Numbered from the stretch's first letter, positions 23,157-63,538 are shown. The stretch is 64,000 nucleotides of DNA from Antedon mediterranea (GCF_964355755.1 NC_092676.1:3077888-3141887), one strand, 5' to 3'. Notes: generated by a model not told the origin, from the sequence alone. Numbers and translations are program-made.

Positions 23157-24963
23157 ATGGTAGTTATAGTATTGTTTTCTATGTTCCTGTTAAAAGATGA
23201 ATCAATATCGGTATTAACAATCTTTTTTAGAATGTAGTATAAAAATAACTACAGTATAAATAAAACAAAAGTTAAAAATTTGAATTCGTTAATGAGGCGG
23301 TCTTAGTTATCCGCGCATTTGCATGTTGACGTCATAAAAATGAAAGTAGTAAGACAGAAGCGTTCCTAAATTGGAAATCCACATGATCAAACAAAAGAAA
23401 CACACCGTTCCGAAAGAAACTAATGACAATTACAAAGGATGACACAGTTTGAATAGAGTAAATACCGTATAACATAGGCCTAATTAAATTTTGTTAAGAA
23501 AAATATATTATACTGAATTTACTTTTTACATTTATTTAATTTAGGCCGTAATTAGGTTTGTTGTTCATTTATGACTGTGAAGAAAAACATACGATTAAAA
23601 CAACTATAAAATTAAAAAAAATAATGATTCAGTGTTATAATTTTAATTACCTATCAATATGTTAATAAAACATATTTTAAATTTAATTTCTATCATGTTA
23701 GATATATTTTCAATGACATTTGTTATATAAAAATTATTTTGCAAAGAAATAGTTGCATAAATTAATTTTATCAAACGTATGTAACATAACGAATTATGAT
23801 GTTGAAAAAATTGTTTGTAATTCAGTCCATTTGCTCAGTAGTTCGTTTAAGTTTTATTTGTGTAATATTCTTGTAAATAAGAGAATTTATTGTTAACCTT
23901 TGTAATTATTTTGTAAATATCATATGTGCAATATTTTGCAAAGAAATAGTTGCATAGATTTAATTTTAGCAGGATAATATTTAAATTACATTTTACATTT
24001 ACAAATTTATAAGTGTAATTAAACATTAGCAATAAACTTACAGTCTTTCCAATGCTTTTAAACCATTAAATGCATTTTCTGGCAATTTCCTTATTTGGTT
24101 ATTTTCCAACCTCCTACAATAAAGAATACACAGGAAAAAGAAATTAAAACATCCAAAAAGTTGTCAAATTTATCCTCCTAAAAATGGTCCGAAACTCCCC
24201 CATTCGCAAATTGACACTTGACAAACACTCTCCCAAAAGTATCTGCTTATCCTTTCTATTCGGTTACCTGGGCTCTTAAATATCAAATTTTCGAGGACAG
24301 AAAAGGACAACAGAAAGAGGACACTTAGGAAAAATCGTTTTGTTTCTATAAATAACTTCTAAAAACTTTATTATCATTAACACAATGAGTATAATTTTGA
24401 AAATACTCAATACCATGGTGATCAACTAACAGGAAATTGTCTAAATACCTTATGGTTATGGAAGCTTCAACAACTCAATTAGGCCTAACGCTTTTACTGT
24501 ACTTGACCAGGAATTTTACTAAAAAATAGCCTATACCGTATTTGTTACAGTACAAGATTCCATTTATTTTTTAATGTAGAATTCAATCAAATTTAGGAAA
24601 TTGAATAGCATGATAAAATACTCACAGTAAAGTCAATGATGTCAAACCAACAAATGCATTGGATTGCAATGTACTTATCTCAAAATCTCTCAACCACCTT
24701 CAAGGTAAAACAATGCATATGTAATATGTATTATTATAATACATATTTTTAAACGCACGCGCATCAGAGATTAGATGAGTGGCCATGTTTTGCTATTGAT
24801 TTTGGTTTACCGATTACAAAACATTTTCTGTATTTATAACGTTTGTAGAGTTATAAGCAAATTGAAAAAATACTCACAGTTCTGGCAGTGATGTCAAACC
24901 ATTGAATGCATAGGCTTCCAGTGTACTTATTTGATTGGTTTCGAACAAGTCATTTCTAAAGAA

Positions 24964-25726
24964 AACAAGGCCAACAGCCATTAAGTCGCGTGCTACAATG
25001 CATAGTGATACCGGACCGACAGACCAACAGACAGACAGACCGACCGACCAACCTACCAACTGACCGAAATTACTGAACATGTTTAAAAATGTTGAAATGT
25101 TTAAAAACATTAATATATTTTTTTAATTTACACGTGCGTAGCCTGTCACATTTGACGTGCTCGTATAACATAATTTCGAGTTGAAAAGTAAGTCAAGAAA
25201 ACAGAAATCGGGCAAAAAGAGTGAGCAATAACATTTGACGCGCAGTGCGCGCGCAAAAATCTGCGCACTCATGGCAATTTTGTAAATGCTTAAAATTGCC
25301 TGAAACGTACTCTTATTTCATCGAAAATAAATTTTGAAAATTGTAAGCGCGCGTACGCATGCGTTACATGCGCTACGCACGTAATTGTATTGCCATATGA
25401 TGATTTATGCCCTGAAATTGATGAGTACCAAATTTTATTTAATTGTGATTATTTGTGAAGATATGATTACAAACGTGATTTCGTTAAATCGTGCGTAGAC
25501 CGCGTAATTTTTTATTGCGCACCGTGAAAACATAACCACATCGATTCCTAGCCATAAGGAAAATACTGTGAAAAATTGACTAGATTAAACTGATATCAAG
25601 ATAAGGTCAGAAAGCGATAAAACGCATAGTGATACCGGACCGACAGACAGACAGACCGACAGACAGACCGACAGACAGACCAACCGACCGACATAGTGAA
25701 CTATAGAGTCGCGTCCACGCGACTAA
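24964..25726 (-). mobile_element. HINE-like element, copy 2
   Basis: Same termini and microsatellites as 10955-11860, and a near-identical ~460-bp block. Confidence 0.75.
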
Positions 25727-27550
25727 TAAAGGCTCAGTATGAAATAAATCAATTAGTTATAACTATATTTTTTCTTCTGTAATTTAAAACCATTAGTTAA
25801 TTAATAAAACAAAATTTAATTCAGTATCATTTGTCTGGTTGTGAAATGTTAGGCAACATAAGGTCATCGGAATGCTATAAAAGTCACTATATTATGAATT
25901 ATGCTTTATGCGATCGTGAGTATTTTGACGATTTCTAAGTGAGACCTATCGCGCTCAAACTATCTATCTACAGTAGTAGTCGAGCCGTTGACGAGTGAAC
26001 ATCGTATTATTTGGCTCCGCATACCATGCTGTAAGCCAGCGTGCATGTTTGATTCGTGGCAATACTGTATACTATTCAACAGTGCCTTACTACTATTATA
26101 AAGAAATGCAAACCTTACTCAAATATTAACAAAAGATGTAATTTATGCATTTATTTTTGCAGTAAATCATTGAAATGAATTATTAATCAAAAGGAATTCA
26201 CTATGTAACTATGAAAAATACCTGTATCCAACGATTTGCCCAATGTGCAGTATCCTTCAAAGTAAGAGAAATACAAAATAATTGTTAATATTAAAAAAAA
26301 TATATTTATATTTTGATGACTCAAAAGAAAATCACTACATGAACAAATACTAAATTCAGTGACATTCCTTTAATGATATTTATATTTTAAAATATAATTT
26401 TACAACTGAAAAATTGATTCTGATCATTATATCTTACAAACAATAAACATAATTAATGGTGAATTGACTAAAAATCTTTTTTTTATAAAACCAAATAATG
26501 AAATGTATTTGTTTAACAATACAATGCAAAATAATCTAAATTAAAACCAAATTGGTAAAAGTAAGCAAACATAAGCAATACACTTACAGTGTTTCCAATG
26601 CTGTCAAACCAGCAAATGCATTGGCTGGTAATGTACTTATTTGGTTACTGCTCAAATCCCTTAAAAGTAAAAAGAATGCACAGTATAAGTAAATCAAAAT
26701 ATCCAAGCTGTTTGATATAGACTTATTTTACATTAATTATAACTTTGTTCAATTAAACCTAAATAAATTAATAATGCAAAAAAAAAAAAAACAAAAAAAA
26801 AAAAAAAAAACAAAAAAAAAAAACAAACAAAAATGAGGAGTGGCGAATAATATTTACAGTCAAATGTCACGAACAAAAACATGTTTTGTAATTAATTAGT
26901 GAGTGTAATAAATACAGAAACATGACCTTTTCCCCTAATTTTAAAATTAATTCTTTTAGTCACCTAAAACTGTACAAATCTACATTTCTAATACATTATT
27001 TAGTTACTCCATATAAAGTATTGTATCAAGCCGTATGCAAACTTTATTGACTTTAACTAGATTTAAATTTGTCGATGAGGCGGAGTAAGGTTATTCGCGT
27101 ATTTACAAAAACAAATTTTAACATGATAACTTCATATAAGTAGTTTCTGAGTACAAAAATAAAATTTAGAAGAAAATCCGACACACAGACGCAAGATGCA
27201 CCCTGAAATGATTATGAAGAAATGGATATTTACATTTTGATAACTCAAGACAAAATTACTAAGCAAACATAAGCAATACACTTACAGTGTTTCCAATGCT
27301 GTCAAACCAGCAAATGCATTGGCTGGTAATGTACACATTTCGTTACCGTACAAATACCTTAAACGTACAAAGAATGCACAGTATGAGTAAATCACAATAT
27401 CCAAGCTGTTTTATGTAAACCTATTTGACATTAATTATGACTTTGTTCAATTAAACCATAATAAATTAATAATGGAAAAAAAAAGAATAAAAACGAGGAG
27501 TGGCGAATAATATTTAGAGTCAAATGTCATGAACAAAAACATGTTTTGTA

Positions 27551-28310
27551 GTGAGTTCTATCAATCAGATTACACAAGTAATGTCCACTATTATACATTC
27601 TGATCAAAAAGGTTACATTACTGAAAGGTTTGGTGGTGAAAATATAAGACTTGTAGAAGATATACTTTCTTTTACTAATATCAAACCCGGCGCTTTAATT
27701 TTACTCGATTTTGCAAAAGCGGTTGATTCGGTAAACAGAAATTTAATGTTAAAAACGCTAACAAAAATTTGTATTTGGTCCGTCTTTTATTAAATGGATT
27801 AAAGTAATATATATACCGATACAGGAAGTATAATGGTAATTAATGCTTTGATGTTGGAAAGCATTAAGATGGAATGTGGACAAGGGTTTCCTCTATCGGC
27901 CTTGTTATTTATTTTGGTAGGTAACATACGGAACAATCCCCTGTAAAGGAATTGAATTGCCAAAAATAAATGATGAAAAATGTACTGTTAAGATTTCTCA
28001 GCTTGCAGACGATAATATCATCTTTACAAAAGATAAAGAATCGTTGATTTGTTTTTTACATGAGATTGAGCTATTCTGTAGAATATCAGGTTTAAGATTG
28101 AACAAAGAAAAAACAAATGGTATGTGGATTGGTGCGAGTAAACATAATATGTCAGAACCATGTAATATTACATGGACAAAGAAACCTGTAAAGTTTCTAG
28201 GAATTTATGTTGGATACGATAACAAATTATGTGAAAAGAAAAACTGGGACCATAAGATTATTTCTTTAGAAAATATCGTAAGATTATGAAAGAGAAGAAA
28301 TCTCAAGTTA
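27551..28310 (+). mobile_element. Degenerate L1/Tx1-clade LINE RT fragment inside the LRR array
   Basis: Frameshifted pieces IIHSDQKGYITERFGGENIRLVEDI, LLDFAKAVDSV, ISQLADD, SGLRLNKEKT, KFLGI. Confidence 0.75.
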
Positions 28311-29651
28311 TTTTTTATGTATGTACCTTAGTGATGTCAAATATTATATTAAGATAAAAATGTGGTAAATATATTTAAATAACTTAAAACAAAATTTCTA
28401 CACCAAATTCAATTGTTTGTTAGCAACCATATGATAAATGTATTATCTAATATGTTAAACAGATTATAACATTATATAAGGAAATATAGTTGTTTAACAT
28501 ACAATGCGAAATAATTTATAATTTAATTTCTAAATGAAAACCAAATTGGTAAAAGTAAGCAAACATAAGCAATACACTTACAGTGTTTTCAATGCTGTCA
28601 AACCAGCAAATGCATTGGCTTGTAATGTACTTATTTGGTTAATGTACAAATACCTTAAAAGTAAAAAGAATGCACAGTATAAGTAAATCACAATATCCAA
28701 GCTGTTTTATGTAAACTTATTTTACATTAATTATGACTTTGTTCAATTAAACCTAAATGAATTATTAATGCAGAACCCCCCCCCCCAAAAAAAAAACCCC
28801 CAAAAAAACAAACAAACAAAAAAACCAAACCAAAAAAAGTTGGATAATTTTATTTAGAGTCAAATGTCACGAACAAAAATAAGTTTTGTAATTAATTAGT
28901 GATTTTAACAAATACTTACAGGTATTCCAATGCTGTCAAATCAGCAAATGCATTGGCTGGTAATGTTCTTATTTTGTTCCTGTCCAAATTCCTTAAAAGT
29001 AAAAAAGAATGTACAGTATAAGTAAATCACAATATCCAAGCTGTTTTAAAATTATTATTTTTTTTTTTTACCGTAAACATTGAAATGACGTAGTTAGACT
29101 ACAGGCCCGTAGCCAGTGGAGTTTTATGGTTCGGGCGAAAGCCCCACCCCACCCCACTTTACAGCGAATTCCCCTTAATCGACTGCGAACCCCCATACCC
29201 GACATGCCCAATACCCTCACCTCATCTCTGAAAATCTTCCAAACACGTGCCCCACAGTACAAAAGGTTATTCGTAAATTGAAAAATTCGTAAACAAACTC
29301 GATTGTAAATAACTCCTATCTTCTTCACTGTGTATGAGCGTACGTCGAGCGATACGTGTCTGTAAATTTTTAAGAGTTGCAAGATAATTTCCGATTTTCA
29401 CCTAAAAATTAGATACGAATTTTTGGTCCCTGGATATAACACGATATTGACGTGAATACCACTCTACAGCGAACTATGCCCCGAACAATTTGTACAAAGT
29501 ACACCGCCAGAAAACCGCGTACCTATTGTTTAGATTAGATCACTCCAGTCGGCATGCATCAGGTATAGCCTTCCGATGTACATACTAAAAAAGGAACACT
29601 ACGGTTACCTACAGTAAATTATAGTGAATATAATATAAACACTATCTATGC

Positions 29652-29826
29652 AGGGGAAAATTTCATTTTAAAATTTTGTTTAGCAATATTGCTAATCAAA
29701 CTGATTTTTTAGTCCAGAAACATATAGTTTTGTTTTGTATTTTTTGCTACACAATTGTAGAAATGTGTAGCAATAAGGTTGTTTTGTATAGCTTTTTGCT
29801 ATGCTACACTGGCGAAATTATTCCCT
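29652..29826. mobile_element. Short MITE with CAGGG...CCCTG termini
   Basis: Imperfect TIRs CAGGGGAAAATTTC / GAAATTATTCCCTG; TCTATG present on both flanks. Confidence 0.45.
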
Positions 29827-32800
29827 GTCTATGGTATCATGTACTGTAGTTTACATTTTAGCATCTGATTATTTTTTTCTAGGCCACCAGCAGCCGATAC
29901 GTACTCAACTGTATCAATACCATCTATTTATTGATATATTTATTTCCTTAAAACATTCTGTAAATAAATATAGATAGAGGAGCTATAAAGCAGCATTGAA
30001 TTTGCCTTCTCACTCAAAGTTTGCTTTTTTTCGGGGCTTTCTCTAGACGTACGTTCGCATTGAACTTGAAAGAAAACGCCCATCTAACATAGGGCAACAC
30101 AATGTTATCGTCCTTTAAATAGTCCATGTGTTTAAGGAGGAGGAAAACAGTAGCCTACGATCGATTTGCTCATTGTTAGCATGCTGCATGAGAGCGGCCA
30201 ATTGGACTTGCAATTTATCATGAATTTTATGTGCCAGATACCATTTCCGGCAGACGGCAGTGACCCAAATACAAATACTTAGTGTCCGAACCCTCCTTGG
30301 CAGATCCTGGCTATTGTATGTCAAATACTATGTTAAAATAAAAATGTTGTAAATATATTTAAATAACTTATTTTCTTAAAACAAAATTTCTAGACCAAAT
30401 TCAATTGTTTGTTAGCAACCATATAAATAAATGTATTATCTAATATGTAATACAGATTCACTTTCAATTGTTATATCTTACAAAAAATAAATAGTTAAAA
30501 TCATGATGAATAAAATTAACACATTTTGTACAACTGAAAATTTGATTCTGATTTATTCTATTTACAAATAATAAATAATTCATGGTGAATTAACTAAAAG
30601 TTAGTTTTGTTTTTGTTGAACTTATTTAAAAAAAATATAAAATCACATAATGAAATATATTCGTTTAACATACAATGCAAAGTAATTGTAATTTAAAAAA
30701 ACAAATTAAAATTGGTAAAATTAAGCAAACATAAGCTATACACTTACAGTGTTTTCAATGTTGTCAAAACAGCAAATGCATTGGCTGGTAATGTACTTAT
30801 TTGGTTACTGCTCAAATCTCTTAAAAGTAAAAAGAATGCACAGTATAGGTAAATCACAATATCCAAGCTGTTTTTAAATTATTTTATTTTTTCTGTCACC
30901 TCAAATGTTGAAATGTCTACATTCCTGTACATTATACAGTAGTTATACTGCATGTACTCTATTGTATGTACTTTAGTGATTTCAAAATATACTATGTTAA
31001 AATAAAAATGTGTGGTATAATATATTTTAATAACTTATTTTCTTAAAACAAAATTTCTAGACCAAATTCAATTGTTTGCTAGCAACCATAAAATAAATGT
31101 ATTATCTAATATGTAAAACAGATTCACTTTCAATCGTTATATCTTTCAAAAAATAAATAGTTCAATCATGATGGATAAAACACATTTGTACAACTAAACA
31201 TTTGATTCTGGTTTATTCTGTCTTACAAATAATAATAATAATATTGAATTAACTAATTAACTAATTAAATTTAATTTCTAAATTAAAATTGGTAAAAGTA
31301 AGTAAACATAAGCAATACACTTACAGTGTTTCCAATGCTGTCAAACCAGCAAATGTATGGGGTGGTAATGTACATATTTCGTTACCGTACAAATACCTTA
31401 AACGTATAAAGAATGCAGAGTATAAGTAAATCGTAATATCCAAGCTGTTTTATGTAAATTTATTACACTAATTATGACTTTGTTCAATTAAACCTATATA
31501 AATTTATAATAATAAAAAAAAACAAAAAACAAAAACAAAAACAAAAAAAAAACAAAAAAAAAAAAACAAAAAAAGAATAAAAAGCAAAGAGTAGGGAATT
31601 TTATTTAGAGTCAAGTTTCACGAACAAAATATGTTTTGTAATTAATTAGTGAGTTTAAGAAAAACTTACAGGTATTCCAATGCTGTCAAATCAGCAAATG
31701 CATTGGCTGGTAATGTACTTATTTGGTTCCTGCCCAAATTCCTTAAAAGTAAAAAGAATGTACAGTATTAGTAAATCACAATATCCAAGCTGTTTTTAAA
31801 TTATTTTAGTTTTTCTGTCACCTCAAATGTTGAAATGTCTACATCTCTGTAAATTATACAGTAGTTATACTGCATATACTCTACTGTATGTACCTTAGTA
31901 AAGTCAAATACTATGTTAAAATAAAAACAAGGAAAAAATATTTTAATAAATTATTTCTTAAAACAAAATTTCTACACCAAATTCAATTGTTTGTTAGCAA
32001 CCATATAATAAATGTATTATCTAATATGTAATACAGATCCATTTTCAATTGTTATAATAGTTCAATCATGATGGATACATTAACACATTTTTGTACAACT
32101 GAAAATGTAATTCTTACAAAACACTTACAGTGTTTCCAATGCTATCAAACCAGCAAATGCATTGGCTGGTAATGTACTTATTTGGTTATACCTCAAATCC
32201 CTTAAAAGTAAAAGAATGCACAGTATAAGTAAATCACAATATCTAAGCGGTTTGATGTAAACTTATTTGACACTAATTATGACTTTGTTAATAAATTATT
32301 AATGCACCAAAAAAAAAAAAAACAAGGAGAGAGAGGAATAATATTTAGAGTCAAATGTCACGAACAAAAACATGTTTTAATGAGTGTAAGAAAAACTTAT
32401 TCCAACGATATTAAACAAGCAAATACATTGACTGGTATAAAACCATATAATGAAATATAGTTGCTTAACCTACAATGCGAAATAATTGTAATTTATTTTC
32501 TAAACTAAAACCAAATCGGTAAAAATAGGCAAACATAAGCAATACACTTACAGTGTTTTAAATTCTGTCAAACCAGCAAATACATTGGCTGGTAATGTAC
32601 TTATTTGGTTATATCTCAAATCCCTTAAAGTAAAAAAAAAAAGAAAAATGCACAGTATAAGTAAATCAAAATATCCAAGCTGTTTTTAAATTATTTTAGA
32701 TTTTCTGTCACCTCAAATGTTGAAATGTCTACATTCCTGTACATTATACAGTAGTTATACTCCATATACTCTATTGTATGGTTTTTAGCAATGTAAAAAT

Positions 32801-33424: not shown

Positions 33425-35311
33425 CTTTTCTGGGTGTTTTACTTTTACTTTCGCCTTCATGATATGCGTTAAATTTACCATGAATTATATACATATATAA
33501 ACATATCAGGCAAAGAATTCACCGCCCGGTGATATACTGAAATTTTAATTAATTAATTTGAAACGATAAAGATGAGGAAATCTGTTAAATATATATATCT
33601 ATATATAAATTAACGTAAGGGCAAAATTCGGTAAATCGCGCCTTATTTCTAGAATGTTTACTCGATGGTATATAAAGTTGGTTCGTACTTTCGGTACTGA
33701 TTTTAACCACCTGATGTAACCCTGTTTACTAATTAAATTGAGTTCGATAATTAGTTATTGACGATTAAAACAAATTTAGGTTCAACGATTTGCCCCAAAT
33801 GTTTTACTGTATTTAGATGTAGGCCTATAGTATTAATAGGCCTATAGTAAAACATGAAAAAAAATATTTCGTTACTGAGTGGATAAAGAATATATTTAAA
33901 AATTGTTCTTCTTTGTACCTATCCGCTTTCCCATCCCTCAACCCTAATGTTACATACAAAACACAAATTGGGTTTCTTTAAATGGGTCCAAATCAAAAAT
34001 TTGGACTCATTTTGATAAGTTTCTCCTTCGGAAGTAATTCCCAGGGTGCTAATTTTAGTTGACTACATAAATCATCGTGTCTATTTATTCGTTTCTGTAA
34101 ACGACAATGTATTACAGTCCTACGGTACGTACATTTGAAATCGCCAGTTTTGCTACGCTGCTGAAATTACTGTGAATTCGAGAACCATCTAGTCTATATA
34201 TAAATTTACGTAAGGGCAAAATTCGGTAAATCGCGCCTTTCTTTTAGAATTTTTACTCGATGGATATAAAGGTGGTTCGTACTTTCGGTACTGATTTTAA
34301 CCACCTGATTTAACCCTATTTACTAATTAAATTAAGTTAGATAATTAGTTATTGACGATTAAAACGAATTTAGGTTCAATGATTTGCCCCAAAGAAGGGT
34401 GTTTTCCGATCGTGGTATACACTGTCTAATGGATGTCCATCTTGAAAAATACCCGCCACAAAAATGCGAGGAGGCTTCGCATTTTCCTATCTCCTCCTAC
34501 GATAATTGTTTTTAATAGCTGAAAACCGGTTGAACAGCTAGAGTACAGCATCATAATGTTGAAGACAGGCCGATTTTCTTTAAAAAATACTATTTTGATA
34601 GATTTAATATACGATTATACAAATGTAGTGATTTGCGATGAATGGAACATCCCAAAACTTGCAATACTTTGACAATACTGTACTGTAAATACCTATTAAC
34701 TATTTTCGGTCCTCATTTGAATCGAACAATTCTTACAGTGAATGTTCGTACTGTTAGATGTAATATAAAAATATATACAAATAAACTTTATTACTGAGAT
34801 TGTGGATAGGCTCTACTGTTAGATATATAAACACATTATTATATACAAATAAACTTTATACTGACAGTTCCTTCTCAACGTTTGTATTAATTAATAATTA
34901 CCAATAATATAAACGTCGTAGTGGTGTATCGTGATATGTACTTTAATATTTTAATCGATTATGACAGTGACAGTTTTAAACAAAGTATTAAATCGCAAAT
35001 GTTTTACTGTATTTAGAGGTATATTATTTATAGGCCTATAAAACATGAAAAAAATATTTCGTTACTGAGTGGATAAAGATTCTATTTAAAAATTGTTCCT
35101 CTTTGTACCTATCCGCTTTCCCATCCCTCAACCCTAATGTTACATACAAAACACAAATTGGGTTTCTTTAAATGATGAGTCCAAATCAAAAATTTTGACT
35201 CATTTGTGATAAGTTACTCCTTCGGTAGTAATTGAATTCCCAGGGTGCTAATTTTAGCTGACTACATAAACCATCGTGTCTATTTATTCGTTTCTGTAAA
35301 GACAATGTATT

Positions 35312-41075: not shown

Positions 41076-41349
41076 TTAGCTTACAAATCCAAAATATCCA
41101 TATTAGGCCTATTTAGAAAACGATATGTCAATTTAAGTATTTTTACGGTTAACATTAATTCTTATACAGTTCCATACAGGTGTATTAAAACAGCTTTAAG
41201 ATTACACTGTTTATTTCGTGAGATTATTTTTCCTGATTTAATTAAAAATAAAACAAATCGCTTACTGAAGACAATAATAAAGACAAAATAAATTACATTA
41301 ATGAATCCATTTTTGTAAATGACATGCAATTTGACTTTTTTTTAACACT

Positions 41350-48744: not shown

Positions 48745-51700
48745 CTAAAATAATCAAAACATTCTTGAGTTTTGAAATTTGTGCACATTTTTTAGTCACC
48801 CACCTGTATTCTTGAAATACCCACCAGCAACTAATTCAAGTTTATGTATCTCCCTTTTATTTAGCAGTCCCACACTGCGAGTAGATTAACAGAATGCTCA
48901 TGTGACTTAAGCACACATTTAGTGGCACATTTGTGAATTTCAAAAACATGCAAAATACAATTTTGAGAAACAAGAGAGATCTTTATCGTCGTAAGTTTCC
49001 ACAATCATCCTGTTGATTGTAAACTAGTCAGTGTGGTGGCAGTCTTTCACAGATGGTTTTGGGATTAGTAAAATACTTTTATTTCTATTTTAATTTATTT
49101 TTTTTAATAGATTTTTTTTTAAATTTATTTTTTTCAACAATTAATTTATTTTTACAAGGGAGTTACTTGGATTGCCCAAATTTTGATAAATCATTACTTA
49201 CAATTCCTTTAAGCTTATCAATTGATGAAAGGTCCTGTCCCTGTAAACCTGTAACTTGTTGCCTTTTAATTGTCTAAAAAAAAATAAATTTAAACTAAAT
49301 AAGTTTGTTTTCACACTTCTTAATTCCTTCATTACTTAATATATATGCTGTACATATTAACATTTCTTATTTTAATACTGTACAGAAGGAATAATAAGTT
49401 TAGATTTGTGTGTGTGTGTGTGTGTGTGAACAACACAAATAGGTTAATGCTAAACTATCAAACTTTATGTGAAAACCATATGGACACGATGATATCATAT
49501 TACTACCATATTCAGCACATCACACATTTTGTCCTTGAACTAGTTTCATAGTGTAGATTAGAGTTTAGTTACACATTGCACTGATTATATAAGCATGTGT
49601 TCGCAGTTGCGAATCCATGATATCCGAAATGTGGAACACTATTGAATTAGTGGTAAATCACACGCACTAATATTGTTAAGAATAATTCAATTGAGGCAGT
49701 CAAAGGGGAATGTTCCCCCTGATCCTGATACAAACCAAATCAATTCAGGTCATCGTAATTATGTGTTGTGTACATTCAGGAAGGCAACTACATGCAAATT
49801 ATATCTTACATAATGTTAACTTACAAAATTAAAAGTGATGAAGCAAAAGAAGAGAATGCCTCAGGATCTATGGTAGTTATAGCGTTGTTATCTAAGTTCC
49901 TGTTTAAAGATAAATTAATAGACATTTAATAAATATTTGTTTATTGAAAAATATGTTTTATTTAAAAATGTTATGTCCCCTATCAAATCAGACTTTGAAT
50001 AGGCCGTTTTGTTATTTTAATAAAGTTATTCACTTCCATAGAATAAAAAAATTAAAACAAATAATGTTTTCACTTATAAAAAGACAAAGTAAATGGTTAA
50101 ATTCAACAATTTATATTTTGCTTAATATATATATGTTTTTTTGGTCAAAGTGAATTTAAATATTTATGTGACAATTAAAAACATTGTTTTTTTTAAATAT
50201 TTGGACAATGTATCTTTAAGACTATATTACGATTTAAAATGTTATACTGAGAGTAACAAGCATTCCTGCTTGAAACTACGGTAGTTATTATACAGTAGAG
50301 GTAATGATGAAAGAAAAGTCTATCTGGAGCTGACTACACCACAGACTCATTCATTCATTCATTCATTCTTTATTTAGCCTTTAAAATCGAAATACATTTA
50401 AAACAAGGTAACAAAAACAAGACAGGGTGGAAATCTAAGGAGGCAAGGATAAGCAAAAGCAATTATAATCGCTGTAGCTCTCAGGCTTGCTTATCCATCC
50501 TTAGACTAAAAATAAAATAATTTATAGTAATTAAAATCATATAATAATATATAATTTGTTTGATTCAGTCTTATGGTAAGATTTCATTCTTTTTAAAGTC
50601 ACGGAAATATCTTTAAATCAATTAATCAATTATAATTAATGTTGTTCATTCGAATTCCATTGACTGACACATGTGTTTACTCATTGTTTGTTAGGGCAGT
50701 CCATGAAATTCAGTATTAACTGGAATAATTATAATAACCATAATTTAGGAAGTATTGAAAAAAACTCCAAATGATTTCAAACATTGGTACCAGTGTTACA
50801 GCAATGTTAGGGCAGTCCATGACATCCAGTATCAACTGGAATAATTAGAATAGTTCTAAAACCTTAAATGATAAATAATACAAATTATGGTCTTGCTAGT
50901 TTGAGCAGTAAATTAAGTTAGTTGCAAATCGATTTAATATAAACACTGCATTTACCCCTTTTATTTTTGTTTTCAGGTTAAAGTTTTTATATATATAGAT
51001 TCTTCCATTTACAGTTTTGTTGGCAACCAAACCCACTGCGCTAATTAGTCTTAAGCTTTACTTGCCCAGCCTGTAAATGTTTTGCTTTATCCTAGAGAAT
51101 AGTAACCCTTTTATAGTACAAAAGTGTTATTTCAGGCAAGTCGACCAGTGGCTTCAGGTTCATCATCATAAAATAGGCATAATTTTACAAAAATGTAATT
51201 GAAAGATTACACTATAAAATGCATATTGTACAATGTAGTGATTTGGGATAAATTTGTTCAGATATTATACTCACAGTTCTGTCAATTCTGTCAAACCATT
51301 AAATGCATTTGCTGGCAATTTCTTTATTTGGTTATTGTCCAACCTCCTATAATAAAGAATACACAGTGAAAAGAAATTAAAATATCCAAGAAATTGTGTC
51401 CGCTTGACTTTTCATAATATGACTTTATTCCTGTGGAAACCACTTGTAAATGGACACCTCATAACGGATACTCACATAAAAGTCTGTGTGTCCTTTTTAT
51501 TCAATATAGTGCATTGGTATGTACCATTAGGGAAGAGTGGAATTACTTTCCCTGGTACCATCTTAAATCATCTCAAACATTTCCATAAGAAGACAGGAAA
51601 AACATTTCATTTGTATAGATAACTTCTAAAAACTTTTTATTTTCTAAAAATAATTTTAAATACTGAAATCTCTGTTACTTTACTTTAAAATAGCCCATAT

Positions 51701-54700
51701 TGGAGAATTAGACGCTATACATTAAATTCATTCATTCATTCATTCTTTACTTGGTCCAATATAAAAATACATCAGAAATTCTTCTTATATACACTGCAGA
51801 GATAATAACAATATACGTACATGCAGAAAACAATCAATATAAAAAATCACTGATAAAATATCAATTCTAATTCTCCGACTGGGCAATTATCACAAAATTT
51901 AATTCAATATTGTGTTTTGTCTGATTGTGAAATCTACTTTTGACTTACTTTATAACAAAATTTAAACATGAACTCATTTTTTTATGTAGTAATTCAATTA
52001 TAATTATAAAGTACATATCAATAAAAATACTCACAGCAATGTCAATGCAGTTAAACCAAAAAATGCATTTGCTGGCAATGTGCTTATCTTGAAATCTCTC
52101 AACCACCTTCAAGATAAAACAATTTAGTATTAACCAATTAGCAGACCATGTATTAAAAAATAAATTTCATGTTTTGCGATATGTATTACATATTATTAAG
52201 TCTATTTCGTGAGATCCCTACCTGTATAGACTCTACATATGCCATTATTCCCAATATGGACACCCCTCGTAAGGAAAATGGAATAGTCCAGGCGCCGTAG
52301 CGGGCCGCGTAATTTTTTTTTCCAGGACGAACGTGGGCAGAAATCATGAATAATTCATGATTAATTATGACATAATAGGGATCTACTGTATGTATCGATG
52401 TAAATTGGGGGGGGGGGGGGGGTAGGATAGGGGTTGATAGTTGCTTTTGCCTTTTTTACTTTTCTGTTAATTGTTATATTTTATATTGTGAAGGATGCAC
52501 CTTTGTGCTAAGTGTGCCACCGATCTAAAGGTGTAATTCCAAATAAATAAATAAATAAAATAGGGAACATTATAGAGGGCGCTATATAAGAATGCAGAGA
52601 GATTAAATAATTAGTGCAAACAACGTTTGCCAACCGAAATGTTTGGTCTAGCGGTAAAGGCTTTAACCTATTACGCTGAATTATTTAGAGGGTTAGGTTT
52701 AGTATATTTAGGAAGTAGATCAGCTATCTTTCAATTCTTTATAATAGAAAATAATTAAGGTAATGAATTATTCATGACTTCTGCCCACGTTCGTCCTGGA
52801 AAAAAAAACACAGCGAGGGGAGGCGAGGGGGTTTCTATACAGGTAGGTATCTCACTCATAGACTATACCAACACCACTGTTGGTTTGTGTAATCATATAC
52901 CATCTGTAAGTGGCCATGTTTTTTTGTTGGTTTTAGTTTGGAACAAAAATTATTACAAAAATTTTCTAAAATTTAGTTTTATTTGAAAATTCTAGAAAGT
53001 TTGTAGGAATTCAGAGTAAAAAAATACTCACAGTTGTGGCAGTGATTTCAACCCATTAAATGCATAGGCTTCCAGTGTACTAATTTGATTAGTTTCTTCC
53101 ACCCACCAGTCAGGACTAAAGAAAAGGAAAGTTCAGTAAGAAAAAATTGCAGTATTCAAAACTATATATACTACTATAAACTATAATTTAAAACCATTAG
53201 TTACCATTAAAGATGAGATCTAAGAATTCTAATTCTCCGACTGGGTAATTATCACAAAATTTAATTCAAAATTGTGTTTTGTCTGCTTGTGAAATGTTAC
53301 TTTTCTTTGTTTTCCACGGGATTACACTGTAGTGATATAGGTGGACAACATTATACATCGCAATTCAGTTATTTTTGTAAACACACATATCCCCCCCCCC
53401 AGTTTTTTAATGGTGGTGGGGGAGGGGGATCCTGTTGTCACCGCTGTAATTCAATAAATGAAACAGGTACTGAAATGGTACTGAATGATGCTTCATTTTA
53501 TGAAAACCACATAAAATAATCATGATTATTGAAAGAAAATTAGACATTGGTATAAGAAATGCATTAAAAAAGTAGAAATAACAAAGCAATTTCAATAAAT
53601 ATGTAAATAATGTTTAGGTAAGTTTTGATTTTTAAAGAATAGGTTTAAGCAGCAAGACAAGAAATATGATATGAACTAACTTTAATTTTATAGCCTTGTT
53701 TTGTTCACATTCATTTATTCATTCATATTCAATATCATAAGTAAAAAATAGACATTTTGTTCTCATAGTACACTGTTTAAGCTAAATTATGTTACAAAAT
53801 AAAATATAACAGTTTATTATATCTCAACCGTATGTTGTAACAGTAAATAAAAATATAATTATATTTTATTTGTATTACCAACTGAATGGATCTTTTAAAG
53901 GGTAAAGTATGTTTTTTTTTTTTATAGGCATGTTGCAAGTCATGACAAAATATCTTTTATTTTTTAACAGCAAACTGTAGTGATAGTAGGCCTAGTGTCA
54001 CTTAACCCTGAACGGAATGATAATAATGAAATGGCAAAGATTAAAACTGTGTAGCATTTTTTAATTCATTTTTGCTGTACATACATTGAACTAATGAATT
54101 ATTAATCAAAAGAAATTCATAAGAGTAACTATAAAAAAAATACCTGTAATCAGTGATTTGCCCGACGTGCAATATCCTTCAAAGTAAGAGAAATACAAAG
54201 TAATTGTTATTATAAAAAAAATATATATATATATATATTTTGATAATTCAAAACAAAATAACTACATAAACAAAATGTAGTAAATCTTACTTAAATGATA
54301 TTTAAATTGTAAAATATTATTTTACAACTGAAAATTTATTTTGATTGATTATTATCTTACAAAAAATAAAAAAAATTCATAGTGAATTCATTAAAAAGAA
54401 GTTGTTATTTTTGGGGTTGGGTGTGGGGAGTGGTTTAAACTTATAATCACATAATATAATTATATATTAATTATTTTGTTATAGTTGTCCTACAATGTAA
54501 AATACAATTTCTAATTTAACTTTTTAATTAAAACTAAATTGTAGTACAGTAAATACATTATACTGCATGTAATCCATCTATTGTATACTTTAGTATGTCA
54601 AAATATAATATGTTAAAATAAAAATTTGGTAAATATATTTAATAATTTATTTCCTAAAACAAAATTTTTACACCAAATTCAAATCTTTAGCAACCATAAT

Positions 54701-57700
54701 AAATGTATTATCTAATATGTAATACAGATTCAGTTTCTATTGTTATATCTTACAAAAATAAATAATTCAATCAAGGTGTATACATTTTAAAAATGTTGAT
54801 TTTAAGATTATTTGAAATAATTTGATAAATTTAAAAATGTTGATTTTAAAATTCTTTTTCTGTAAATAGTCGTAATGTACACATTAGTCCATTTTTACAA
54901 TTGAACCTACAATGAATGCACTCCATTGTATAAACATTTTAATGTCAAAATATAAAATATAGGCCTATACTGTATGTAAATTTTAATTTTAAATCACTAC
55001 ATAAACAAGTACTACTGTAATTATTTAGTAACATTTGTTATAATGATATTTATATTGTGACATTTACAATAAAAATTTATTTTGAATTATTTTTATTTAA
55101 AAAAAATAAAATGTGTTCATGGTGGATGAGCAAAAAACTACTGATTTTTAAGATATTTTCTATAAGATCACAAATTGTGAAATTTTGTAAACATTTTAAT
55201 CCATTATCATTGTTTAACCAACAAAGTAAAATAATTTGTAATTTAATTCTAAATTAAACCAAATTTGTAAAAGTAAGCAAACACAAGCAATACACTTACA
55301 GTTTTGTCAATGCTGTCAAACCAGCAAATGCATTGGCTGGTAATGTACTTATTTGGTTCCAGTTCAAATACCTTAAAAGTAAAAAGAATGCACAGTATAA
55401 GTAAATCACAATATCCAAGCTGTTTTTAAATTATTTTAGTTTTTCTGTCACCTCAAATGTTGAAATGTCTACATTCCTGTACATTATACAGTAGTTATAT
55501 TGGATGTACTCTATTCACTTTCAATTGTTATGTCTTACAAAAATAAATAATTCAATCATGGTGGATAAATAAAAAAAATTTGATTTTCAAATAATTCTTT
55601 TAGCTATACATACAAATATAAAATATATATTTATATAATTTTTTTCTCATAAGACAAAATTAATACATAAAAAAATACTAATTATTTAGTGACATTTGTT
55701 ATAATAATATTTATATTGTGACATTTACAAAAAAATTTATTTTGAAATATTATTATTTAAAAAAATAAAATTCATTCATGGTGAATGAGCAAAAAACTAG
55801 TTATTTTTTTTAATTATTTTTTATAAGATCACAAATTGTGAAATTATATAATAATAATCCATTATCATTGATTAACCAACAATGTAAAATAATTTGTAAT
55901 TTAAGCAATACACTTACAGTGTTTCCAATGCTGTCAAACCAGCAAATGCATTGGCTGGTAATGTACTTATTTGGTTACTGCTCAAATCCCTTAAAAATAA
56001 AAAGAATGCACAGTATAAGTAAATCACAATATCCAAGCTGTATTTAAATTATTTTAGTTTTTCTGTCACCTCAAATGTTGAAATGTGTACATTCCTGTAC
56101 ATTATACAGTAGTTATATTGGATGTACTCTATTGTATGTACTTAAGTTATGTCAAAATATACTATGTTAAAATAAAAATGTGGTAAATATATTTAAATTC
56201 ACATTTTTGAATTGTTTTACAACAATAAATAATTCAATCATGGTAGATAAATAAAAACAAATGTTGATTTTAAAATTCTTTTTACAGTAAATAATTAAAT
56301 TATGGAATCATAGTCCATTATTACAATTGAACCTACAATGCATGCATTGTATTGTATCAATATTTTATGGAAAAATATACAATATATATGTAAATTTTAA
56401 TAGTTTTTATTCTCATAAGACAAAATTATTACATAAATAAATATTAATTATTTAGTAACATTCATTATAATGATATTTATATTGCAAATATTTAAAATCA
56501 AAGATAAATTTTGAATTATTATATATTACAGAAAAAATAAAGTTCATTCATGGTGGATGAACTATGAGACTAGTGATTTTTAAAGATATTTTTATAAGAT
56601 CACAAATTGTGAAATTATGTAATAATATTAATCCATTATCATTGCTTAACCAACAGTGTAAAATAATTTTATATTTAATTTCTATATTTAAACCAAATTG
56701 GTAAAAGTAAGCAAACATAAGCAATACACTTACAGTTTTTTCAATGCTGTCAAACCAGCAAATGCATTGGCTTGTAATGTACTTATTTGGTTACCGCCCA
56801 AATACCTTAAAAATAAAAAGAATGCACAGTATAAGTATAATCACAATATCCAAACTGTTTTAAAATTATTTTAGTTTTTCTGTCACCTCAAATGTTGAAA
56901 TGTCTACATTCCTGTACATTATACAGTAGTTATACTGCATGTACTCTATTGTATGTACTTTAGTTATGTCAAAATATACTATGTTAAAATAAAAATGTGG
57001 TAAATATATTTAAATTCACATTTTTGAATTGTTTTACAACAATAAATAATTCAATCATGGTAGATAAATAAAAACAAATGTTGATTTTAAAATTCTTTTT
57101 ACAGTAAATAATTAAATTATGGAATCATAGTCCATTATTACAATTGAACCTACAATGCATGCATTGTATTGTATCAATATTTTATGGAAAAATATACAAT
57201 ATATATGTAAATTTTAATAGTTTTTATTCTCATAAGACAAAATTATTACATAAATAAATATTAATTATTTAGTAACATTCATTATAATGATATTTATATT
57301 GCAAATATTTAAAATCAAAGATAAATTTTGAATTATTATATATTACAGAAAAAATAAAGTTCATTCATGGTGGATGAACTATGAGACTAGTGATTTTTAA
57401 AGATATTTTTATAAGATCACAAATTGTGAAATTATGTAATAATATTAATCCATTATCATTGCTTAACCAACAGTGTAAAATAATTTTATATTTAATTTCT
57501 ATATTTAAACCAAATTGGTAAAAGTAAGCAAACATAAGCAATACACTTACAGTTTTTTCAATGCTGTCAAACCAGCAAATGCATTGGCTTGTAATGTACT
57601 TATTTGGTTACCGCCCAAATACCTTAAAAATAAAAAGAATGCACAGTATAAGTATAATCACAATATCCAAACTGTTTTAAAATTATTTTAGTTTTTCTGT

Positions 57701-60700
57701 CACCTCAAATGTTGAAATGTCTACATTCCTGTACATTATACAGTAGTTATACTGCATGTACTCTATTGTATGTACTTTAGTTATGTCAAAATATACTATG
57801 TTAAAATAAAAATGTGGTAAATATATTTAAATTCACATTTTTGAATTGTTTTACAACAATAAATAATTCAATCATGGTAGATAAATAAAAACAAATGTTG
57901 ATTTTAAAATTCTTTTTACAGTAAATAATTAAATTATGGAATCATAGTCCATTATTACAATTGAACCTACAATGCATGCATTGTATTGTATCAATATTTT
58001 ATGGAAAAATATACAATATATATGTAAATTTTAATAGTTTTTATTCTCATAAGACAAAATTATTACATAAATAAATATTAATTATTTAGTAACATTCATT
58101 ATAATGATATTTATATTGCAAATATTTAAAATCAAAGATAGATTTTGAATTATTTTATATTACAGAAAAAATAAAGTTCATTCATGGTGGATGAACTATG
58201 AGACTAGTGATTTTTAAAGATATTTTTATAAGATCACAAATTGTGAAATTATGTAATAATATTAATCCATTATCATTGCTTAACCAACAGTGTAAAATAA
58301 TTTTATATTTAATTTCTATATTTAAACCAAATTGGTAAAAGTAAGCAAACATAAGCAATACACTTACAGTTTTTTCAATGCTGTCAAACCAGCAAATGCA
58401 TTGGCTTGTAATGTACTTATTCGGTTCCTGCTCAAAGACCTTAAAAGTAAAAAGAATGCACAGTATAAGTAAATCACAATATCCAAGCTGTTTTTAAATT
58501 ATTTTAGTTTTTCTGTCACCTCAAATGTTGAAATGTCTACATTCCTGTGCATTATACAGTAGTTATACTGCATGTACTCTATTGTATGTACTTTAGTTAT
58601 GTCAAAATATACTATGTTAAAATACAAATATGGTAAATAACTTTAATAACTTATTATCTTATAACAAAATCTCTACACCAAATGTAATTGTTTGTTAGCA
58701 ACCATATAATAAATGTATTATGTAATACAGATTCACTTTCAATTGTTATGTTACAAAAATAAATAATTCAATCATGGTGGATAAATAAAAAAATTTTGAT
58801 TTTAAAATAATTCTTTTAGCTATAGGCCTACATACAAATATAAAATATATATTTATATAATTTTTTTCTCATAAGACAAAATTAATACATAAAAAAATAC
58901 TAATTATTTAGTGACATTTGTTATAATAATATTTATATTGTGACATTTACAATAAAAATTTATTTTGAAATATTATTATTTAAAAAAATAAAATTCATTC
59001 ATGGTGAATGAGCAAAAAACTAGTTATTTTTTTAAATTATTTTTTATAAGTTCACAAATTGTGAAATTATGTAATAATATTAATCCATTATCATTGCATA
59101 ACCAACAATTAATTAAACAAATAATTTGTAATTTAATTTCTAAATTAAACCAAATTGTTAAAAGTAAGCAAACATAAGCAATACACTTACAGTGTTTTCA
59201 ATGCTGTCAAACCAGCAAATGCATTGGCTTGTAATGTACTTATTTGGTTATAGCTCAAAGACCTTAAAAGTAAAAAGAATGCACAGTATAAGTAAATCAC
59301 AATATCCAAGCTGTCTTAAAATTTTAGTTTTTCTGTCACCTCAAATGTTGAAATGTCTACATTCTTGTACATTATTACTCTATTAGTGATGTCAAAATAT
59401 GTTAAGTTAAAATAAATGTGGTAAATATAATTATTTTAATAATTTATTTTTATAAATCAATTGTTTGGTCAACCATAATAAATGTATTATCTAATATGTT
59501 AAACAGATTCAATTTAAATTGATATCTTACAAAATAAATAGTTCAATCATGGTGGATAAATTTAAGAATTGTTGCTTTTTAAATTTGTTTTACTATAAAT
59601 AATCATGAAATCATAAGGTACATATTAGTCCATTATTACAATTGAACCTACAATGCATGCATTGTATTGTGTCAACATTTTATTGATGTCAAAATAAAAA
59701 TTATTAAAAGTAAATATTCATCTCAAAACGTATGAATGTATAGTTGTACATGATATTGTTCACTATAGGTTTAATTATGTTACTCTGCACCTTATATCTT
59801 AATTTGTGTTTTATTTAGGGTTATCCCTTTGTTCTTATAATTATGGGATGCCACTGCCCTTTTTTTACCACTCAAACAAATAAAGACTTGGTTATACTGA
59901 TCGGTTTGATAAATGTGTATTTATTGAAGTCTGTGGTTGAATTTGAATATAATTATCAATTATCAAAGACAAAATTACTACATAAACAAATACTAGTTAT
60001 TTAGTAACAATGATTTTGATATTTATATCGTGAAATTATACAATAAAGGATTTCGAATTATTATTATTAATTAATTATTAATTGGTTACCGCTCAAATAC
60101 ATTAAAAGTAAAAAGAATGCACAGTATAAGTATAATCACAATATCCAAGCTGTTTTTAAATTATTTTATTTTTTCTGTCACCTCAAATGTTGAAATGTCT
60201 ACATTCCTGTACATTATACAGTAGTTATACTGCATGTACTCTATTGTATGTACTTTAGTTATGTCAAAATATATTATGTTAAAATAAAAATGTGGTAAAT
60301 ATATTTAAATTCACATTTTTGAATTGTATATAAAATATATATTTATATTACATAGCCTATGTAAATACGCGAACGTGATTGGTTGAAACTGCATCACATG
60401 ACTACCGCTGCGAGGATCGTAAATCGTATATATCCTCGAGAACGATGATATTGACTGTGTAATTTTCGCGTAATAATCGTGTCCCCTGTCATTAATCATA
60501 TAAATTCTCGAGTACGATGATATTGACTGTGTAATTTTCGTGTGCAACACTCGAGTTTGCCGATAAATAAACAAAAGTCATCTACTCGATCTTGAACTCG
60601 GGTGGAATTGTCACTCCATCGCAAGACAACGTTTCATCCGCTGGGCCACGGAATTTGCTTGAAGAAATTAATCTTCTAAACTTTTTAAGCTATGCATACA

Positions 60701-63538
60701 TAGCGCCCTCATTTGTTATAAGTCCACCCTAAATGTGATGAAACACCGTTTGTGATTGGTCAATACTCACGGTAGTAACCTAGTAACTAGTACGCGCTGA
60801 ACATCCGGTGATTCGGCTCCTCGAAGATCGAGAGAAGACGAATTCTTTATTCGGCCTACCTGATTATAATATTATTATTAATAGGCTTATTGATGGAAAT
60901 TCTTCTGTTAATTTAAACGACCTAGGCCTAAGTGAATATTTTATTGCCAAGGAATCATTAATTAGTAATTATCTGTATATTATTCTTCGCAAGGTAAGGT
61001 GTCTAGGCAGGCTTGTTTTAAATACAATACAAATACTATAGGAGGCCTAGGCCTAGCCTAGCTTCACCCAACCCAGCAGACTTGTTCTTGGCTATATAAT
61101 ATAACAGATATTGCCTTTTATATCGGTTAAATATAAGATTTGACATCCCCTCGGGAATGATATTAAGTTCGAGGAAATATATATTCCCTCGAACTTAATA
61201 TCATTCCCTCGGGGATGTCAAATCTTATATTTAACCTCTAAGCAGTCAATATCTGTATAATATAATTTTTTTCTCATAAGACAAAATTAATACATAAAAA
61301 AATACTAATTATTTAGTGACATTTGTTATAATAATATTTATATTGTGACATTTACAATAAAAATTTATTTTGAAATATTATTATTTAAAAAAATAAAATT
61401 CATTCATGGTGAATGAGCAAAAAACTAGTTATTTATTTTTATTATTTTTTATAAGATCACAAATTGTGAAATTATATAATAATAATCCATTATCATTGAT
61501 TAACCAACAATGTAAAATAATTTGTAATTTAAGCAATACACTTACAGTGTTTCCAATCCTGTCAAACCAGCAAATGCATTGGCTTGTAATGTACTTATTT
61601 GGTTACTGCTCAAAGACCTTAAAAGTAAAAAGAATGCACAGTATAAGTAAATCACAATATCCAAGCTGTTTTTAGATTATGTTAGTTTTTCTGTCACCTA
61701 GTGATTGACTATCATGTCAAAATATAATTTAAAAAATCAAATAATAATTGTTTAATAACATTCATTATAATTATATTTATGTAGTGAAATTCGAATTACA
61801 CAAAAATAAAGTTCATTCATGGTGGATGAACTAAAAACTAGTGATTTATAAAGTTATTGTGAATCAAAAATTGTGAAATTATATAATATTAATCCATTAT
61901 CATTGCTTAACCAACAATGTAAAATAATTGTTAATTTAATTTCTAAATTTAAACTACATTGGTAACTGTAAGCAAACATAAGCAATACACTTACAGTGTT
62001 TTCAATGCTGTCAAATTTCTAAAAGAAAATTTCTACACCAATTTCAAATTGTTTGTTAGCCACCATATTATGTAGTATCTAATATGTTATACAGATTCAA
62101 TTTAAATTGTTATCTTACAAAATAAATAGTTCAATCATGGTGGATAAATTTAAAAATTGTTGCTTTTTAAATTTGTTTTACTATAAATAATCATGAAATC
62201 ATAAGGTACATATTAGTCCATTATTACAATTGAACCTACAATGCATGCATTGTATTGTGTCAACATTTTATTGATGTCAAAATAAAAATTATTAAAAGTA
62301 AATATTCATCTCAAAACGTATGAATGTATAGTTGTACATGATATTGTTCACTATAGGTTTAATTATGTTACTCTGCACCTTATATCTTAATTTGTGTTTT
62401 ATTTAGGGTTATCCCTTTGTTCTTATAATTATGTGATGCCACTGCCCTTTTTTAACACTCAAACAAATAAAGACTTGGTTATACTGATCGGTTTGATAAA
62501 TGTGTATTTATTGAAGTCTGTGACATTTGTTGAATTTGAATATAATTATCAATTATCAAAGACAAAATTACTACATAAACAAATACTAGTTATTTAGTAA
62601 CAATGATTTTGATATTTATATCGTGAAATTATACAATAAAGGATTTCGAATTATTATATCCTCCAAAAAAAAAGTTCACTCATGAACAAGAAAATGAATT
62701 GTTTTTAGAGTTATTTTTATAAGTATAAAGATAATAAAATTATATAATAATATTAATCCATTATCAATGTGTAAATGTATTTATAAATTAAAAACAAACT
62801 GGTTAAAATAACCAAACATGTAAATTTGCCTTTGTTCCACACACAAAAGAATCACAAAAAGCTGGTAAAAATCACAAAATACAAACAATATAGTATAAAC
62901 TAGCAAATGTGAAAAATTAAAACATTAAAAATAATACAGAGCACTCTACTCTCATTCAGGATGTACACGTCACATTACTTGTTTTAACTACCTTATTTAT
63001 ATATATTCCAAATAGATGATTGACTGATTGGGAGCATGCACATAGCTGACCATGTTATAATTTTTGGAAAACTAAGGCCTACCTACCAAATACCTACAAT
63101 CGTTTTAATCATTTTTTTTTTAGTCTATCACATTCTTACGTAAAATGTCGTATACGGATATTGACCAGATTAATGATGAGCCCGTAAACTGATTGAAACG
63201 ACCTAAATATACTGTAGACCGCCACAAGACCAGTAGTTTCACATTAACAAATTCCACCCACTCCCCCTCTGTTCAATATTATCATGATCCTACTGTATAA
63301 AGCATGGACCTATTATCAAAGAAATATAAATTTTGCTCACAGTATGACATAAATTTAGTTAAATTTCAAAATATCGACAAAAGATGTTCTACTTACAATG
63401 TTGTTATTGGATCATACACATTGTACTCAACAAGCTCTGTATGTATATTTGTATTCCATCGAGTACATCTAGTTCTATTATAACAACCTGCTGAGTAACA
63501 CGTCGGGACATTACATGTGCAAGATGCTGGGCATCGGA
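47721..63538 (-). CDS. LRR-containing GPCR paralog B (GRL101/RXFP-like 7TM), apparently intact; 5' exon(s) probably outside the window
   Basis: Exons: 63538-63397 LRRNT (RCPASCTC...RCTRW); seven 72-nt LRR exons at 61617-61546, 59262-59191, 58439-58368, 57622-57551, 56805-56734, 55989-55918, 55371-55300; microexon 54176-54144; 53115-53032; 52106-52035; 51346-51275; 49899-49825; hinge+7TM 48744-47721. All GT-AG, phases compatible, no stop codon. Confidence 0.88.
52209..52855. mobile_element. Non-autonomous DNA element with nested inverted ends
   Basis: Outer arms GTGAGATCCCTACCTGTATAGA / TCTATACAGGTAGGTATCTCAC; inner arms TTCCAGGACGAACGTGGGCAGAA / TTCTGCCCACGTTCGTCCTGGAA. Related sequence at ~44640-44930. 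Confidence 0.6.
55300..62015 (-). repeat. Tandem array of LRR exon+intron cassettes, paralog B, including near-identical 817-bp units
   Basis: Exon ends at 55918, 56734, 57551 and 58368 (spacing 816/817/817) with near-identical introns. A further ~600-bp duplication spans ~59460-60065 vs ~62048-62655. Truncated exon remnants at 60081-60100 and 61995-62014. Confidence 0.9.
60330..61260. mobile_element. Unclassified ~0.9-kb inserted element ending in a long palindrome
   Basis: Interrupts the cassette intron consensus. Contains a ~35-bp direct repeat (60434/60506), a tRNA-like segment (~60580-60652, minus) and a 112-bp palindrome (61125-61236). Confidence 0.5.

Follow-up and report, generated by a model that had tools for sequence, protein, structure and literature searches.

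Arrays of exons that each encode one leucine-rich repeat (LRR) have been described in brown algae and ciliates. The 72-nt LRR exons of brown-algal LRR-ROCO genes vary in number, recombine within and between genes, survive as dead exons in introns and undergo gene birth and death, with selection acting on the repeats' concave face and a proposed role in immunity (PMC3341825), and they are alternatively spliced (PMC11378527). Tetrahymena LRR genes contain variable numbers of 90-bp phase-2 exons, some identical between genes, with unequal crossing-over, intronic retroelements and, according to the authors, mostly purifying selection (PMC6564038). [quoted passage not shown] The design itself is not new, being that of brown-algal ROCO and Tetrahymena genes; for cassette-diversified LRR-GPCRs we found no earlier report in a search that left most subscription papers and supplements outside, and supplements of genome papers could hold the family. 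The genes probably belong to a germline-diversified family of non-self receptors built on a relaxin-receptor-like GPCR, in which selection alters binding, most likely to microbial or parasite molecules.

The window genes work like the brown-algal design, with one LRR per 72-nt exon, variable exon number, recombination within and between genes and dead exons, but they are not members of it: ROCO proteins are intracellular GTPases with a Roc-COR module, whereas the window genes would signal through a cell-surface class A seven-transmembrane (7TM) domain, and LRR class and exon register differ. The inverted intronic exons and alternative splicing reported for ROCO genes were not found here. With Tetrahymena, the locus shares equal-length phase-2 LRR exons in variable number, exons identical across genes, unequal crossing-over and intronic retroelements; unlike the window genes, those of Tetrahymena belong to a ciliate, have 90-bp exons and lack a GPCR. 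Variable lymphocyte receptors (VLRs) of jawless vertebrates are likewise built from LRR modules of 24 residues whose concave face is hypervariable, and the sibling P0345 matches VLRA (2o6q, E 4e-30) in sequence. The VLR germline gene is incomplete, and VLRs have no 7TM domain. They are assembled somatically from flanking cassettes (PMC3341825), whereas the cassettes described here are spliced exons of a germline array that can be spliced as it stands.

Type C LRR-containing GPCRs (LGRs; RXFP1/2 form C1 and GRL101 C2) share with the window genes one LRR per exon and a 7TM domain with a short hinge, both closest to RXFP1; GRL101 expansions are likewise tandem and lineage-specific, and the best matches of both window 7TMs are crinoid proteins labelled GRL101-like. 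In contrast to type C LGRs, neither the window nor those sibling models that extend to the N-terminus show an LDLa domain. Exons with a single LRR are ordinary in LGRs, whose repeat exons are sometimes skipped, and crinoid hormone LGRs are reported as single-copy genes with LDLa (PMC8286064). Orthologous hormone receptors have similar numbers of LRRs (PMC4079206), and the concave LRR face of RXFP1 binds the ligand (10.1101/2022.01.22.477343). As far as consulted, the apple snail and Biomphalaria accounts of GRL101 (PMC6573481, 10.1101/2024.08.30.610565) do not mention homogenised cassettes whose faces vary; the latter places a GRL101-like expansion, with genes carrying CTL and LDLa domains, at a schistosome-resistance locus of Biomphalaria sudanica.

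Cassette arrays of genes A and B

Seventeen core cassettes, ten in A and seven in B, are present as 72-nt minus-strand exons with AG and GTAAGT ends in phase 2/2, and frame and splice sites are kept in all of them. Each forms one LRR in an equal-length, frame-preserving exon (17 of 17), with a Leu codon split in phase 2 at every cassette boundary. Since all are phase 2/2, any subset stays in frame. A search of both strands with a single reference cassette gave these 17 scores of 65-78 of 78 positions and six more divergent LRR exons scores of 49-59; the remaining sequence held no match above 40, so the array is not a product of chance, and the same scan found no opposite-strand cassette in the window. 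A preliminary description, made from the DNA alone, had counted 17 near-identical phase-2/phase-2 exons and listed their five-residue strand motifs; both the count and the motifs (17 of 17, in the right order) are correct. The backbone QISTL(P/Q)ANAFAGLTAL, which it called almost fixed, is exact in only seven cassettes (five of seven in B, two of ten in A). It placed a pair of LRR-GPCR genes at 24042..63538, where genes and cassettes do exist, but this interval omits the 7TM exon of A (9778-10903), and with A broken there is no working pair. It also lacked the non-homogenised LRR exons and the 33-nt exon that lie downstream of the cassettes in both genes.

Gene B leads from the LRRNT exon through seven cassettes, the 33-nt exon and five other LRR exons to a single exon for hinge and 7TM, and is open over 694 codons; its 5' end and signal peptide lie beyond the window. 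LRR ectodomain, Cys hinge and 7TM stand in one frame in B, and not in the broken A, and the TM3, TM6 and NPxxY motifs identify the 7TM domain as rhodopsin-type. The protein collection contains the two genes only as 7TM-only products, P0346 (B) and P0240 (A). An exon end cut by the window edge has a donor compatible in frame with B's LRRNT exon and may be the exon upstream of it. The resemblance of this end to an SRCR domain is not significant, as SRCR-bearing P0009 and P0031 match only at E about 1-3, and no joint to the LRRNT exon appears among the 15 of 28 joints listed from sequencing runs (see below). The 3' half-cassette in B's first intron could be spliced in frame as a micro-exon, with an AG 24 nt before its donor.

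In this assembly gene A is either a pseudogene or a null allele, because its LRRNT exon has a TAG where B has TGG, which stops the frame at codon 75, skipping that exon would shift the frame, a Bel/Pao retrotransposon is inserted in exon t4, and no counterpart of B's exon t5 was detected by tblastn, blastn or an AG..GT scan. The element looks complete, with two identical 1264-bp long terminal repeats (LTRs) and a 5-bp target duplication, and its insertion is very young; the identical LTRs and the open 7TM exon suggest that A died recently. The N-terminus of A's first coding exon, read by eye, suggests a putative signal peptide. No LDLa module occurs in A, whose first exon leads straight to the LRRNT; the corresponding 5' end of B falls beyond the window edge. 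The two genes differ at a phase-1 intron upstream of the LRRNT: what precedes it is an SRCR-like exon end in B and a signal-peptide-like exon in A. In the sibling model P0005, about 345 residues upstream of the LRRNT are unclassified. The N-terminal modules may be shuffled too.

Concave-face variation and cassette exchange

Variation among the cassettes is concentrated in the five concave codons x2, x3, x5, x7 and x8 of LxxLxLxxN, which make up 15 of the 72 nt. Diversity reaches 0.365 at these 15 nt, compared with 0.060 at the 57 other exon nt and 0.084 at 53 gap-free nt of the upstream introns. Of 39 minimal changes, 18 fall in the 15 concave nt when all 17 cassettes are used (P 3.5e-4) and 11 of 14 when B is taken alone (P 6e-6), and the concave rate exceeds the intron rate in both sets (P 0.004 for all, 7e-5 for B). 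Nearly all changes alter residues: 38 of 41 minimal changes are nonsynonymous and three synonymous (P 0.001-0.017 under three assumed shares). The preliminary description had expected just this concentration at the x positions. The same five positions vary in the sibling P0349, which has 11 matched repeats on another backbone (0.75 vs 0.11, P 7e-4), and likewise in the siblings P0345 and P0005. The evidence for selection is this excess over the intron together with the repetition of the pattern in sibling arrays.

With a two-class codon model, omega<=1 is rejected for either of the two trees (2dlnL 25-108), but omega exceeds 1 in the framework as well and is unreliable. Synonymous sites are nearly invariant across the 17 cassettes (pS, the synonymous difference, is 0.017), below the flanking intron, and conversion, splice enhancers or chance may be responsible. 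A first fit (omega 8.3 concave, 0.8 other) was discarded for its flank-distorted tree and single start.

The DNA also preserves traces of how the arrays arose. Three exon-plus-intron units of 817 bp in B are nearly identical, with intron differences at 2-9 sites and B4 equal to B5; an expansion made by the assembly is unlikely because the units do differ at these sites. B3 and B4 with their introns (817 bp) differ at seven sites, five of them within the first 18 nt of the exon and all five residue-changing, a clustering that matches the expectation of a crossover inside the constant core. Between A and B, synonymous divergence (pS) is 0.594 in the 7TM exon, 0.012 in the cassettes, 0.048 in the LRRNT exon and 0.08-0.46 in the tail exons, and 62 of 136 site pairs are incompatible with one tree. 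Either conversion carried cassettes from paralog to paralog, or a B-like gene supplied a replacement for the ectodomain of A, and the LRRNT exon moved along. The distant 7TMs, the close cassettes and the near-identical 817-bp units therefore point to recent duplication and exchange, as does the identity of A10 and B6; unequal crossover, first proposed as a source of the diversity, would be one route to it.

We envisage the following mechanism. In the germ line, one-repeat exons would undergo duplication and, probably, transfer from gene to gene. The variable codons flank a near-constant core, with x5, x7 and x8 at the 5' end of each exon and x2 and x3 at its 3' end. If the core or an intron underwent unequal crossing-over or conversion, the two halves of a strand would be paired anew and the repeat number altered, while the frame is kept. 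Because an intron splits the variable strand, each new pair of neighbours would make a new face. Conversion would erase neutral differences while selection retains concave ones, and failing copies, such as gene A and the half-cassettes, would die.

Several observations weigh against this reading. Omega lies at its bound, and framework omega is also 7-34, both because synonymous sites are almost frozen; dN/dS is thus unreliable here, and recombination, which the model leaves out, inflates such tests. At the concave codons alone, one of 20 changes is synonymous, with P only 0.04-0.15. The intron comparator includes the branch point and may be constrained, the five clustered differences between B3 and B4 could reflect a single crossover instead of five changes kept by selection, and in nearly every LRR array compared it is the concave positions that vary most. 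Framework diversity is 0.083 in A vs 0.018 in B, and with A broken, ten of the 17 cassettes may evolve by drift. The concave contrast is not significant (P 0.30) in P0003, a sibling from Anneissia, and the RXFP1 motif C-x-P-x of extracellular loop 2 is not kept in register. The link of the family to immunity is putative.

Much of this would suit neutral repeat turnover, in which an unstable array with a folding-constrained framework and tolerant exposed positions belongs to a family that is largely dying: the framework of the pseudogene A has changed more than that of B, half-cassettes and three retroelements litter the locus, the synonymous test is weak at the concave codons alone, and low concave identity is general among LRR arrays. 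Tolerance alone, however, cannot raise concave diversity above that of introns and synonymous sites, the same five positions vary in the independently homogenised array of P0349, and frame and splice sites are intact in 17 of 17 cassettes. We regard neutral turnover as improbable.

Family and candidate role of the receptors

At least 28 further Antedon sequences belong to the group, some of them maybe isoforms; they lie on contigs of nine different lengths, 13 of them on the length of the window's contig. In a quick IQ-TREE search of 63 7TMs (SH-aLRT support only, 17 of the 28 Antedon siblings placed, no RXFP1 row), A and B fall into a 19-row Antedon clade (SH-aLRT 100), which adjoins an 8-row clade from Anneissia; both lie within a crinoid clade, and its remaining rows bear LDLa. 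No LDLa was matched by Pfam in six of six siblings scanned and none is listed for P0003 and P0251, several sibling models being 5'-truncated. By sequence, A and B derive from type C LGRs (RXFP/GRL101), without LDLa seen. Cassettes number seven and ten in the window, and matched repeats four in P0345 and 11 in P0349; an expanded family with differing cassette numbers and faces, as the preliminary description suspected, is confirmed by the siblings. An LRR-only search for relatives was abandoned, as it returned mostly unrelated LRR proteins. Scallop P0015, P0018, P0023 and P0029, as well as P0085, P0097 and P0119, are LGR-like, with internally similar arrays of 5-21 repeats and variable concave residues, and the strategy of homogenised arrays may, from these matches, be wider than crinoids.

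Among sequences of solved structures, RXFP1 is nearest to the 7TM of B (E 6e-45, vs 1e-32 for FSHR and 8e-14 for LGR4), and the counterparts of the RXFP1 hinge residues S397, L402 and L403 are conserved. The predicted structure of P0349 (pLDDT 87.8) has a repeated beta-strand on x3-L-x5 in each repeat, and its fold matches LGR4 and the glycoprotein hormone receptors. By analogy with RXFP1, these features suggest a putative ligand-binding role of the concave face; a ligand bound there would act by way of the short hinge to set the 7TM free, following the proposal for RXFP1 but without the LDLa module. The same proximity and the same three kept residues would also be expected of an ordinary LGR for relaxin- or insulin-like peptides with an incidental repeat expansion. 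We consider this extremely improbable: crinoid hormone LGRs are reported to be single-copy and to carry LDLa (PMC8286064), whereas the Antedon clade is multi-copy and species-specific with no LDLa seen, and a fixed ligand would conserve the concave face.

Spliced forms exist in the family, which does not imply a whole B transcript. We sought joints for 61300-64000 and 47700-55500 in five of 16 public sequencing runs, with 15 of 28 and 15 of 36 joints listed; no run is recorded as RNA, X1 being guessed to be RNA though it also covers introns, and X9 being of unrecorded kind. In contigs of X1 and X9, the predicted introns, which have CT..AC ends, are missing between t5 and 7TM and between t3 and t4; X9 also joins t4 to t5. 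Contig depth summed over the cassette is high in X2 and X3, a value that does not translate into a copy number. A cassette-cassette joint in X1 and a joint between a late LRR exon and a cassette in X9 carry the faces YLDHN and SLDGN, neither present in the window, and a cassette is joined to a t4-like exon in both runs, in letters that differ from B.

These joints bear on diversification within the animal, by combinatorial exon skipping or by VLR-like somatic rearrangement. Any subset of phase-2/2 cassettes would be in frame, LGR repeat exons are sometimes skipped (PMC8286064) and brown-algal ROCO exons are alternatively spliced (PMC11378527). However, the joints of cassette to t4 fit paralogs rather than skipping in B, and the in-frame skipping within one gene that had been suggested at first found no confirmation, as the skip-like joints carry other letters. 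B is, moreover, a complete germline gene and not an empty locus with flanking donors, there is no opposite-strand cassette, and the changes show no enrichment in AID-type motifs (9/16 vs 18/29 C/G sites). Within-animal diversification thus seems highly improbable to us.

The same germline diversification could instead serve receptors of the tube feet or pinnules that are chemosensory or recognise conspecific cues (food, mates, settlement, self/non-self). Signalling through a GPCR is apt for sensory cells. Apple snails have 29-132 GRL101 genes, many of them high in tentacles and palps (PMC6573481), and a GRL101-like gene is enriched in the sensory tentacles of starfish (PMC6267866); both count against an immune role. 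In contrast, near-identical introns left by fast turnover and a changing, broad protein-binding face would better fit an arms race, and we rate the sensory alternative as unlikely.

Immune diversity of echinoderms is known from the TLR, NLR, SRCR and SpTransformer families. To these, an exon-cassette-diversified GPCR family would contribute receptors whose read-out, cyclic AMP or calcium, is simple, which makes the question of their ligand directly testable, and it would explain the role of some orphan 'GRL101-like' genes of invertebrates. The window captures the life cycle of such a system, with fresh duplication in B, exchange between distant paralogs and the death of A. The family may have been missed because P0240 and P0346 are 7TM-only products and the crinoid LGR survey reported single copies (PMC8286064). 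In a more far-reaching version, feather stars would have made a hormone-receptor lineage into a genome-wide anticipatory repertoire: dozens of LDLa-less LGRs would share a pool of LRR exons, with ends re-paired by conversion and splicing and with faces on a constant GPCR that differ per animal or cell, much as in VLRs but coupled straight to G proteins. This version is speculative and in our judgement improbable.

Features of the window

Table 1. Features of the Antedon locus, in window coordinates; A2-A10 are given by the starts of their 72-nt exons.
Feature	Position	Strand	Remarks
Exon 3' end, cut by window edge	63959..64000	-	reads DCGHDEDASVICQ; phase-1 GT donor; resembles SRCR-domain end
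B LRRNT exon	63397..63547	-	151 nt, open, phase 1 to 2; Cys-rich cap resembling that of sibling P0005
3' half-cassette remnant, B first intron	61995..62018	-	donor intact, AG 24 nt upstream
Cassette B1	61546..61617	-	SLSSN
5' half-cassette remnant	60082..60100	-	acceptor lost (AT for AG)
Cassette B2	59191..59262	-	SLSYN
Cassette B3	58368..58439	-	SLSRN; start of 817-bp tandem units
Cassette B4	57551..57622	-	YLGGN; identical to B5
Cassette B5	56734..56805	-	YLGGN
Cassette B6	55918..55989	-	DLSSN; identical to A10, 72/72 nt
Cassette B7	55300..55371	-	YLNWN
B 33-nt exon	54144..54176	-	phase 2/2, partial LRR; like peptide in sibling models P0342, P0345
B divergent LRR exons t1-t3	51275..53115	-	t1 53032-53115, t2 52035-52106, t3 51275-51346
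B last two LRR exons t4, t5	49202..49899	-	t4 49825-49899, t5 49202-49273
B hinge and 7TM exon	47721..48744	-	intact class A motifs; 7tm_1 E 1e-31
A first coding exon	42639..42777	-	hydrophobic N-terminus, Ser/Tyr/Asn-rich linker, phase-1 donor
A LRRNT exon	40750..40894	-	premature stop TAG 40809-40811
Cassette A1	40263..40334	-	YLYSN
Cassettes A2-A10	26588..32623	-	starts 32552, 32129, 31670, 31325, 30748, 28920, 28582, 27286, 26588
A 33-nt exon and LRR exons t1-t3	24042..26254	-	33-nt 26222-26254, t1 24878-24955, t2 24626-24697, t3 24042-24113
A exon t4, 5' part	23157..23186	-	cut by retrotransposon
A exon t4, 3' part	15158..15205	-	with donor
Bel/Pao LTR retrotransposon	15211..23156	-	7946 bp, within A t4; one uninterrupted open reading frame (ORF) of 1767 codons
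LINE-like reverse transcriptase (RT) ORF	12027..14204	+	between A t4 and 7TM, at the place of B's t5; RT match
A hinge and 7TM exon	9778..10903	-	open; 7tm_1 E 7e-28
LINE-like endonuclease/RT ORF	35300..37894	+	A1-A2 intron; RT match

Further LINE-like (long interspersed element) fragments were read by eye at about 27533-28289 and about 7188-8037, both on the plus strand. A dispersed repeat of several hundred bases recurs at 2484-2966, 33594-34671, 38226-38709 and 41298-41774, with several copies in introns of A, and several short inverted-repeat elements are present in the window. Exons of a glutathione S-transferase gene lie at about 2000-5200 on the minus strand (GST_C E 4e-9 for 2071-2346).

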